Shown here: piece by piece, positions 1,579 to 6,407 of the stretch
Position numbering within the stretch: position 1 is the stretch's first letter
How the letters are laid out: each line of letters opens with the position of its first letter
Origin: Enterobacteria phage f1
Length of the DNA: 6,407 bases
Sequence record: NC_075031.1
Reading direction: 5' to 3' (one strand)
Translations under genes and position numbers: made by a program
The notes under the pieces: generated by a model
Databases searched by the model: none
The model's input: the letters and a program-made list of their open reading frames with translations, nothing else
Told to the model about the DNA's origin: nothing

Positions 1579-2853
1579 GTGAAAAAATTATTATTCGCAA
1601 TTCCTTTAGTTGTTCCTTTCTATTCTCACTCCGCTGAAACTGTTGAAAGTTGTTTAGCAAAACCCCATACAGAAAATTCATTTACTAACGTCTGGAAAGA
1701 CGACAAAACTTTAGATCGTTACGCTAACTATGAGGGCTGTCTGTGGAATGCTACAGGCGTTGTAGTTTGTACTGGTGACGAAACTCAGTGTTACGGTACA
1801 TGGGTTCCTATTGGGCTTGCTATCCCTGAAAATGAGGGTGGTGGCTCTGAGGGTGGCGGTTCTGAGGGTGGCGGCTCTGAGGGTGGCGGTACTAAACCTC
1901 CTGAGTACGGTGATACACCTATTCCGGGCTATACTTGTATCAACCCTCTCGACGGCACTTATCCGCCTGGTACTGAGCAAAACCCCGCTAATCCTAATCC
2001 TTCTCTTGAGGAGTCTCAGCCTCTTAATACTTTCATGTTTCAGAATAATAGGTTCCGAAATAGGCAGGGGGCATTAACTGTTTATACGGGCACTGTTACT
2101 CAAGGCACTGACCCCGTTAAAACTTATTACCAGTACACTCCTGTATCATCAAAAGCCATGTATGACGCTTACTGGAACGGTAAATTCAGAGACTGCGCTT
2201 TCCATTCTGGCTTTAATGAGGATCCATTCGTTTGTGAATATCAAGGCCAATCGTCTGACCTGCCTCAACCTCCTGTTAATGCTGGCGGCGGCTCTGGTGG
2301 TGGTTCTGGTGGCGGCTCTGAGGGTGGTGGCTCTGAGGGTGGCGGTTCTGAGGGTGGCGGCTCTGAGGGTGGCGGTTCCGGTGGTGGCTCTGGTTCCGGT
2401 GATTTTGATTATGAAAAGATGGCAAACACTAATAAGGGGGCTATGACCGAAAATGCCGATGAAAATGTGCTACAGTCTGACGCTAAAGGCAAACTTGATT
2501 CTGTCGCTACTGATTACGGTGCTGCTATCGACGGTTTCATTGGTGACGTTTCCGGCCTTGCTAATGATAATGGTGCTACTGGTGATTTTGCTGACTCTAA
2601 TTCCCAAATGGCTCAAGTCGGTGACGGTGATAATTCACCTTTAATGAATAATTTCCGTCAATATTTACCTTCCCTCCCTCAATCGGTTGAATGTCGCCCT
2701 TTTGTCTTTGGCGCTGGTAAACCATATGAATTTTCTATTGATTGTGATAAAATAAACTTATTCCGTGGTGTCTTTGCGTTTCTTTTATATGTTGCCACCT
2801 TTATGTATGTACTTTCGACATTTGCTAACATACTACGTAATAAGGAGTCTTAA
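1579..2853 (+). CDS. III: Gene III minor coat / adsorption protein (pIII) precursor, 424 aa, GTG start
   Basis: The ORF-track entry 1549..2853 begins at an upstream ATG, but the recognised pIII N-terminus [33 protein letters not shown] starts at GTG 1579-1581, which has GGAG at 1566-1569 upstream. Domain layout signal-N1-Gly linker-N2-Gly linker-CT is evident, ending ...ANILRNKES at TAA 2851-2853. Confidence 0.93.
1834..1893 (+). repeat. Tandem 15-nt repeats (4 units) encoding the EGGGS-type glycine linker 1 of pIII
   Basis: Units gagggtggtggctct / gagggtggcggttct / gagggtggcggctct / gagggtggcggtact, read in the gene III frame as [20 protein letters not shown]. Confidence 0.9.
2284..2400 (+). 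repeat. Tandem GGGS/EGGGS-encoding repeats, glycine linker 2 of pIII (39 aa)
   Basis: Repeated ggtggtggctct / gagggtggcggttct units, read as [39 protein letters not shown] in the gene III frame. Confidence 0.9.
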
Positions 2854-4242: not shown

Positions 4243-5500
4243 TTTTGTTTTCTTGATGTTTGTTTCATCATCTTCTTTTGCTCAAGTAATTGAAATGAAT
4301 AATTCGCCTCTGCGCGATTTCGTTACTTGGTATTCAAAGCAAACAGGTGAATCTGTTATTGTCTCGTCTGATGTTAAGGGTACTGTGACTGTATATTCAT
4401 CTGACGTTAAACCTGAAAATCTACGCAATTTCTTTATTTCTGTTTTACGTGCAAATAATTTTGATATGGTAGGTTCTAACCCTTCCATTATTCAGAAGTA
4501 TGATCCAAACAATCAGGACTATATTGATGAATTGCCATCATCTAATAATCAGGAATATGATGATAATTCCGCTCCTTCTGGTGGTTTCTTTGTTCCGCAA
4601 AATGATAATGTTACTCAAACTTTTAAAATTAATAACGTTCGGGCAAAGGATTTAATACGAGTTGTAGAATTGTTTGTTAAATCTAATACTTCTAAATCCT
4701 CAAATGTATTATCTATTGACGGCTCTAATCTATTAGTTGTTAGTGCTCCTAAAGATATTTTAAATAACCTTCCTCAATTCCTTTCAACTGTTGATTTGCC
4801 AACTGACCAGATATTGATTGAGGGTTTGATATTTGAGGTTCAGCAAGGTGATACTTTAGATTTTTCATTTGCTGCTGGCTCTCAGCGTGGCACTGTTGCA
4901 GGCGGTGTTAATACTGACCGCCTCACCTCTGTTTTATCTTCTGCTGGTGGTTCGTTCGGTATTTTTAATGGCGATGTTTTAGGGCTATCAGTTCGCGCAT
5001 TAAAGACTAATAGCCATTCAAAAATATTGTCTGTGCCACGTATTCTTACGCTTTCAGGTCAGAAGGGTTCTATTTCTGTTGGTCAGAATGTCCCTTTTAT
5101 TACTGGTCGTGTGACTGGTGAATCTGCCAATGTAAATAATCCATTTCAGACGATTGAGCGTCAAAATGTAGGTATTTCCATGAGCGTTTTTCCTGTTGCA
5201 ATGGCTGGCGGTAATATTGTTCTGGATATTACCAGCAAGGCCGATAGTTTGAGTTCTTCTACTCAGGCAAGTGATGTTATTACTAATCAAAGAAGTATTG
5301 CGACAACGGTTAATTTGCGTGATGGACAGACTCTTTTACTCGGTGGCCTCACTGATTATAAAAACACTTCTCAGGATTCTGGCGTACCGTTCCTGTCTAA
5401 AATCCCTTTAATCGGCCTCCTGTTTAGCTCCCGCTCTGATTCTAACGAAGAAAGCACGTTATACGTGCTCGTCAAAGCAACCATAGTACGCGCCCTGTAG
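4220..5500 (+). CDS. IV: Gene IV outer-membrane secretin (pIV) precursor, 426 aa
   Basis: The ORF-track entry 4181..5500 starts at an upstream ATG, but the recognised pIV N-terminus MKLLNVINFVFLMFVSSSSFA (signal peptide) begins at ATG 4220-4222, with AAGG at 4208-4211 upstream. It overlaps the gene I 3' end by 23 nt. The C-terminal secretin region ends ...LYVLVKATIVRAL at TAG 5498-5500. Confidence 0.93.
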   Translation: MKLLNVINFVFLMFVSSSSFAQVIEMNNSPLRDFVTWYSKQTGESVIVSSDVKGTVTVYSSDVKPENLRNFFISVLRANNFDMVGSNPSIIQKYDPNNQDYIDELPSSNNQEYDDNSAPSGGFFVPQNDNVTQTFKINNVRAKDLIRVVELFVKSNTSKSSNVLSIDGSNLLVVSAPKDILNNLPQFLSTVDLPTDQILIEGLIFEVQQGDTLDFSFAAGSQRGTVAGGVNTDRLTSVLSSAGGSFGIFNGDVLGLSVRALKTNSHSKILSVPRILTLSGQKGSISVGQNVPFITGRVTGESANVNNPFQTIERQNVGISMSVFPVAMAGGNIVLDITSKADSLSSSTQASDVITNQRSIATTVNLRDGQTLLLGGLTDYKNTSQDSGVPFLSKIPLIGLLFSSRSDSNEESTLYVLVKATIVRAL

Positions 5501-5962: not shown

Positions 5963-6005
5963 CTTCCTGTTTTTGGAACTTTTCTGATTATCAACCGGAG
6001 TACAT

Positions 6006-6368: not shown

Positions 6369-6407
6369 NNNNNNNNNNNNNNNNNNNNNNNNNNNNNNNN
6401 NNNNNNN
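6369..6407. other. Run of 39 ambiguous bases (N), masked or unsequenced segment inside gene II
   Basis: Directly visible. 39 nt is exactly 13 codons, preserving the gene II frame and the canonical genome length. Confidence 0.95.

Follow-up and report, generated by a model that had tools for sequence, protein, structure and literature searches.

Gene III of the window and its product

The window, by which we mean the whole 6,407-base stretch of DNA that was analysed, is a complete filamentous phage f1 genome. Base-for-base alignment gives 99.0-99.8% identity to f1 records, 98.6-98.8% to M13 and 96.6% to fd. Gene III, which encodes the attachment protein pIII (G3P), lies at 1579-2853, the coordinates annotated in GQ153916, GQ153919 and J02448. 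Its product matches Pfam PF05357 (Phage_Coat_A; E=1.4e-64, 2 stretches), and mature residues 1-217 are identical to the crystal-structure chain 2G3P at 216 of 217 positions (E=2e-152), the sole mismatch being residue 102. Near-identity to f1 records (99.5% over the genome) at the same genome position, together with the PF05357 and 2G3P matches, places the protein among the pIII/G3P proteins of the Ff phages (f1/M13/fd). The record ends in 39 N (6369-6407), as sister records do in runs of N at about the same place, probably because the segments where primers bind went unsequenced.

N1 is taken to comprise mature residues 1-67, following established knowledge and 1FGP, which covers residues 2-68. 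The first arm of the N2 hinge is taken to be residues 87-101, following the definition in Schmid-lab papers. The features that concern us are listed below.

1579-2853, plus strand: gene III (attachment protein pIII/G3P), GTG start, 424 codons plus stop.
1579-1632, plus strand: signal peptide, 18 codons; the mature protein starts with AETVES at 1633, from the alignment to residue 1 of 2G3P.
1633-1833, plus strand: N1 (mature 1-67), with Cys7 at 1651-1653, Cys36 at 1738-1740, Cys46 at 1768-1770 and Cys53 at 1789-1791.
1727-1727, plus strand: reverted site, T in the mutant isolate F1_1, giving pIII N50I (mature N32I, an N1 residue), and A in the window as in the ancestor.
1891-1935, plus strand: first arm of the N2 hinge (mature 87-101), directly 5' of the mutated codon; boundary from N2 = 102-205 (PMC11852654).
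1936-1938, plus strand: TGT codon, Cys120 of the pIII precursor and Cys102 of the mature protein; TAT (Tyr) in the ancestor, with A>G at 1937.
1936-2247, plus strand: globular N2 (mature 102-205), with Cys188 at 2194-2196 and Cys201 at 2233-2235 forming disulfide 188-201 (PMC11852654, PMC10175506).
2428-2812, plus strand: other retained non-synonymous gene III substitutions, namely A284T at 2428, A297V at 2468, G330D at 2567, G339D at 2594 and F412L at 2812 (precursor numbering).
2692-2745, plus strand: β-hairpin of the C domain, intact, with Cys354 at 2692-2694 and Cys371 at 2743-2745 (PMC10175506).

A ninth cysteine at residue 102

Nine cysteines are present in the mature pIII of the window, at residues 7, 36, 46, 53, 102, 188, 201, 354 and 371, in line with the number given in a preliminary description of this DNA. 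The eight canonical cysteines (7, 36, 46, 53, 188, 201, 354 and 371) are all kept. In pIII they form four disulfides, 7-36 and 46-53 in N1, a domain that is wild type in the window, followed by 188-201 and 354-371 (PMC10175506), and the preliminary description had given this complement of eight cysteines and four disulfides correctly. The ninth cysteine is the product of the substitution at codon 1936-1938, which is Y120C in precursor numbering and Y102C in mature numbering. The variant has the canonical set in place plus one; the sequence gives the positions of these cysteines, not their pairing.

All substitutions relative to the ancestor were checked, and no second new cysteine is created, nor is one removed, anywhere in the window genome. 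Since a cysteine is gained at residue 102 and at none of the other 30 substituted sites, Cys102 has no designed partner, and its earlier designation as unpaired was sound. An overlapping-gene or non-coding explanation for position 1937 was considered and rejected: only short mechanical ORFs cross it on either strand, and the f1 records annotate no overlapping gene there.

Comparison with other Ff genomes

The window was compared with 16 Ff gene III sequences. Fifteen of the 16 have TAT (Tyr), the motif PGYTYINPLDG and eight cysteines. These are f1 J02448, two NBRC isolates, F1_ancestral, M13, fd, five recent natural isolates, F1_2, F1_3, f1_2_FR and f1_3_FR. Only GQ153916 (F1_1) has Cys at this position, as the window does. 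The comparison includes the alignment to M13, f1 and fd references called for in the preliminary description, and all of these references have Tyr; it bears out that TAT (Tyr) has become TGT (Cys) in a stretch that reads GYTYINPLDG in the reference.

TGT is absent from the independent natural Ff isolates fetched, and the allele does not behave as a natural polymorphism among them. When viral, genome and metagenome contigs were scanned for exact matches, the TGT allele had 0 hits in each set, an absence that is nearly uninformative since the TAT control had only 1, 1 and 0.

One contig with an M13-type gene III comes from a marine SAR11 single-cell assembly (JPUP01000080.1, 'SAR11 cluster bacterium PRT-SC02' contig_430, 3249 bp, match 2778-2809). 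It carries the wild-type TAT codon and, like M13, has T at the position equivalent to 1043. The M13-type sequence in this contig is almost certainly laboratory M13 or vector contamination.

A mutagenised lineage

Relative to F1_ancestral (GQ153919), the window is changed at 31 called sites. All 31 differences are transitions (22 G>A, 5 A>G, 2 C>T and 2 T>C), and 17 of them change amino acids, across pII, pIII, pIV, pV and pVI. Six residues of pIII are changed relative to the ancestor; those other than Y102C (A284T, A297V, G330D, G339D and F412L) all lie in the second linker or the C domain, and none makes a cysteine.

The record GQ153916, 'Mutant Enterobacteria phage f1 isolate F1_1', has 29 substitutions relative to the same ancestor, 19 of them G>A. 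The window contains 27 of these 29 substitutions, including A>G at 1937, and adds three new ones. Of these otherwise private F1_1 substitutions, only the one at 4544 has a counterpart in the other two lines. The two genomes agree in 1937 A>G (pIII Y120C), in length and in coordinates, and they differ at five called sites; F1_1 has N at 451. F1_1 has T at 1727 (pIII N50I) and C at 2478, whereas the window has the ancestral base at both. The window in turn has A at 1043, T at 4367 (pIV P50S) and A at 5977, all new and not found in F1_1.

Mutant lines 1, 2 and 3 have accumulated 29, 28 and 20 substitutions, and G>A dominates the spectrum of each. Twenty to thirty transitions per 6.4-kb genome in three parallel lines are what marks the outcome of mutation accumulation or of deliberate mutagenesis. 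Lines 2 and 3 have descendants deposited as f1_2_FR (JF719733) and f1_3_FR (JF719734), in which we take FR to stand for fitness recovery. The relation of the window to F1_1 is the same as that of f1_2_FR and f1_3_FR to their parents, that is, a few reversions and a few new changes. By its shared substitutions the window is a descendant of F1_1. The names of the sister records make it very probably the f1_1_FR endpoint, as does the single gap, at NC_075031, in the RefSeq series NC_075025-NC_075033 as covered here, which falls at the place expected for f1_1_FR (JF719732).

Two of the F1_1 substitutions, 1727 (N50I, an A>T transversion) and 2478 (a synonymous T>C), are back to the ancestral base in the window. 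A synonymous site is unlikely to have genuinely reverted; the founder may therefore have been a clone other than the F1_1 clone sequenced, or polymorphism in the stock may account for it.

Origin of the cysteine codon

The mutagenised laboratory lineage is the real explanation of the ninth cysteine; the nature of the mutagen, the meaning of FR and the fitness of the lines we infer from the record titles and the mutational spectrum. We consider it very likely that the A>G transition behind the TGT codon is genuine and inherited: it arose in the deliberate mutagenesis of f1 that made the low-fitness isolate F1_1, as a passenger among about 30 transitions, and was carried unchanged into the window. 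On this best explanation Y102C was neither engineered nor adaptive, and it is not a polymorphism of natural phages. With 29 substitutions drawn from the spectrum of the lineage, 0.30 new Cys codons would be expected per genome, and 0.07 in gene III. One new Cys codon among three lines is therefore unremarkable. The allele is not new, having been public in GQ153916.

Structural setting of residue 102

Cys102 is the first residue of globular N2 and sits at the junction with the hinge arm 87-101, so its earlier placement in the N2 domain holds. Globular N2, residues 102-205, is marginally stable, and I103A, L106A and Y110A strongly destabilise it (PMC11852654). Two engineered proteins cover the same stretch. 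An isolated N2 construct (P0002) starts exactly at Y102, and a heavily evolved, stabilised and disulfide-free G3P (P0001) carries T101I and keeps Tyr102. AlphaFold2 was run on N1-N2 without an alignment; the mean pLDDT of the model, 35.9, is too low for reading the burial of residue 102 or distances from it.

A word-indexed homologue search returned only two engineered fd constructs. An exhaustive HMMER search of 1.84 billion representative proteins returned four proteins, two of which cover site 102: one (P0003) has Tyr there, and the other (P0004) has Thr beside an alignment gap. As far as these searches reach, N2 is essentially Ff-specific, and for that reason conservation is a poor guide to the constraint at residue 102.

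P0004 is a distant pIII-like protein of 401 aa that is 43% identical. It is without the 87-101 hinge arm and has a different N2 cysteine pattern, and it retains the INP.D motif and the C domain. It is among the very few diverged relatives of the Ff N2.

Possible consequences of Cys102

Effects of Cys102 on folding, disulfide shuffling or infectivity are plausible, as the preliminary description had suggested. In wild-type pIII all four disulfides join consecutive cysteines, and Cys102 interrupts this order between Cys53 and Cys188. DsbA tends to bond cysteines that follow one another in the chain, and proteins with an aberrant cysteine, such as PhoA*, are mis-oxidised and come to depend on DsbC (PMC4624244). 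Fewer than five copies of N2 suffice for infection (PMC10175506).

From these features a course of events can be proposed. Y102C would replace the aromatic first residue of a marginally stable globular domain with a cysteine that has no partner. As pIII folds in the periplasm, where DsbA favours consecutive cysteines, Cys102 would lie between Cys53 and Cys188 and might occasionally mispair, and DsbC would then be needed for correction. In the remaining molecules Cys102 would persist as a free thiol or in a mixed disulfide. Any loss of functional pIII could be buffered by the five copies per virion, of which fewer than five would be enough for infection, and the net fitness cost would be small enough for Y102C to be tolerated and not reverted.

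No compensating change was found in N1-N2, which is otherwise identical to 2G3P. Because this region carries no other change, there is no local compensator. The phage is viable, and the substitution was kept through later passages while N50I was lost, which suggests that the cost of Cys102 is small or modest; retention is weak evidence that the cost is low, as a single specific G>A event would be required to go back. Peptides displayed on pIII are strongly censored when they carry an unpaired cysteine (PMC12174986). Censorship of this kind would predict a larger cost than is assumed here, and the two stand in mild tension.

Alternative explanations

An adaptive or compensatory origin would have Y102C selected because it improves pIII (stability of the hinge or of N2, or pilus-triggered opening) or because it offsets damage elsewhere. 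Residue 102 adjoins residue 101, the site of T101I in the stabilised variant P0001; the substitution was retained while the N1 change N50I disappeared; and Thr in the distant pIII-like homologue implies that Tyr is not absolutely required. On the other side, Y102C dates from the mutagenesis step, which brought 28 further substitutions with it, and did not originate in the FR passaging that followed. Lines 2 and 3 show no parallel, whereas 1043 G>A did recur (lines 1 and 2). The natural and reference Ff genomes fetched lack the change, and P0001, heavily evolved, stabilised and disulfide-free, still has Tyr102. We regard an adaptive origin as quite unlikely, and the suggestion in the preliminary description of a selected variant finds no support in the origin of the change at the mutagenesis step, in the parallel lines or in natural Ff phages.

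Cys102 might instead form a new functional disulfide, either between pIII copies (Cys102-Cys102 at the virion tip) or as a rearranged bond within N2, and so change the architecture of pIII. Flexible glycine linkers keep the five N1-N2 modules near one another (PMC10175506), and the periplasm is oxidising. Bonds between copies, however, would leave at least one of an odd number unpaired, and no phage protein has a second new cysteine to serve as partner. Mispairing with Cys188 or Cys201 would break the native bond of a marginally stable N2, yet the phage is viable. Such a disulfide is very unlikely.

The alternative of a sequencing or base-calling error, with TAT (Tyr) as the true codon, was also raised in the preliminary description and is extremely unlikely: although the call is a single base in a record whose N runs (6369-6407) point to a Sanger-style consensus of limited depth, the same G at 1937 stands in the separately deposited parent GQ153916, from an accession series earlier than JF7197xx, the two records differ at five other called sites so that neither copies the other, and an A>G transition fits the spectrum of the lineage.

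Other substitutions in the three lines

Gene III holds 29 of the 77 surviving substitutions in the three mutagenised lines and makes up 20% of the genome (binomial p = 2e-4). Only 4 of the 77 fall in gene I, and genes VII and IX have none. The higher G content of gene III accounts for this distribution only in part, which suggests that pIII in viable survivors tolerates mutations well. On the packaged (+) strand, 50 of the 77 substitutions are G>A and few are C>T, with no obvious preference for trinucleotide context among them. The strand asymmetry hints at the mutagen or at the replication stage that was affected.

The G>A at 1043 is a synonymous change in codon 67 of gene V (TCG>TCA). It occurs independently in line 2 as well (f1_2_FR, JF719733), and it arose after the mutant stage: neither the ancestor nor either of the two mutant parents has it. 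At this position M13 and FfLavender carry T. The change lies about 65 nt upstream of the gene VII start and is a candidate adaptive synonymous or regulatory change.

An adjacent pair of G>A substitutions is found at 5977-5978, in the intergenic region about 30 nt upstream of the gene II start (6006). The change at 5978 came from F1_1 and that at 5977 is new; the other Ff genomes examined all have G at both. The pair may have a regulatory effect in the gene II leader or promoter region.

Two substitutions fall in gene IV. P50S of the secretin pIV (4367) first appears in the window, and D109N (4544 G>A) is the only substitution common to two independent mutant lines, F1_1 and F1_2.

Significance

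The ninth cysteine is a by-product of laboratory mutagenesis. As such it has little biological weight, and the value of the result lies in its correct classification. The window genome, if used as an f1 reference, is not wild type, given its 31 substitutions. In view of the strong censorship in pIII display libraries, it is somewhat unexpected that a phage with an odd cysteine where N2 begins still propagates.

It is conceivable, though rather unlikely, that Cys102 is a solvent-accessible free thiol or takes part in an inter-subunit disulfide on infectious pIII. If so, the hinge-N2 junction would tolerate an odd cysteine without compensating changes in N1-N2. A handle for site-specific conjugation at the phage tip would then have its natural proof of principle in this variant, and Cys102 could serve as a probe of hinge opening in pilus-triggered infection.

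Comparison with known systems

The pIII of the window has the same domain layout and the same eight canonical cysteines as wild-type Ff pIII/G3P (f1 J02448, M13 V00604 and fd J02451; structures 1G3P, 2G3P and 8B3O). It differs from these proteins in having Cys instead of Tyr at residue 102 and in five further substitutions in the second linker and the C domain.

PhoA* and AppA, which have non-consecutive disulfides and require DsbC, resemble the variant in that an aberrant cysteine interrupts an all-consecutive pattern, as Cys102 does in pIII (PMC4624244). DsbC dependence is a property of PhoA* and AppA; for pIII with Cys102 it is a prediction.

Peptides with an unpaired cysteine displayed on pIII are a second likeness, in that an odd cysteine in periplasmically folded pIII can attack native disulfides (PMC12174986). 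The cysteines of display libraries lie in an unstructured N-terminal extension and are strongly selected against; Cys102, in contrast, takes the place of a residue where a folded domain begins, and the propagating phage has kept it.
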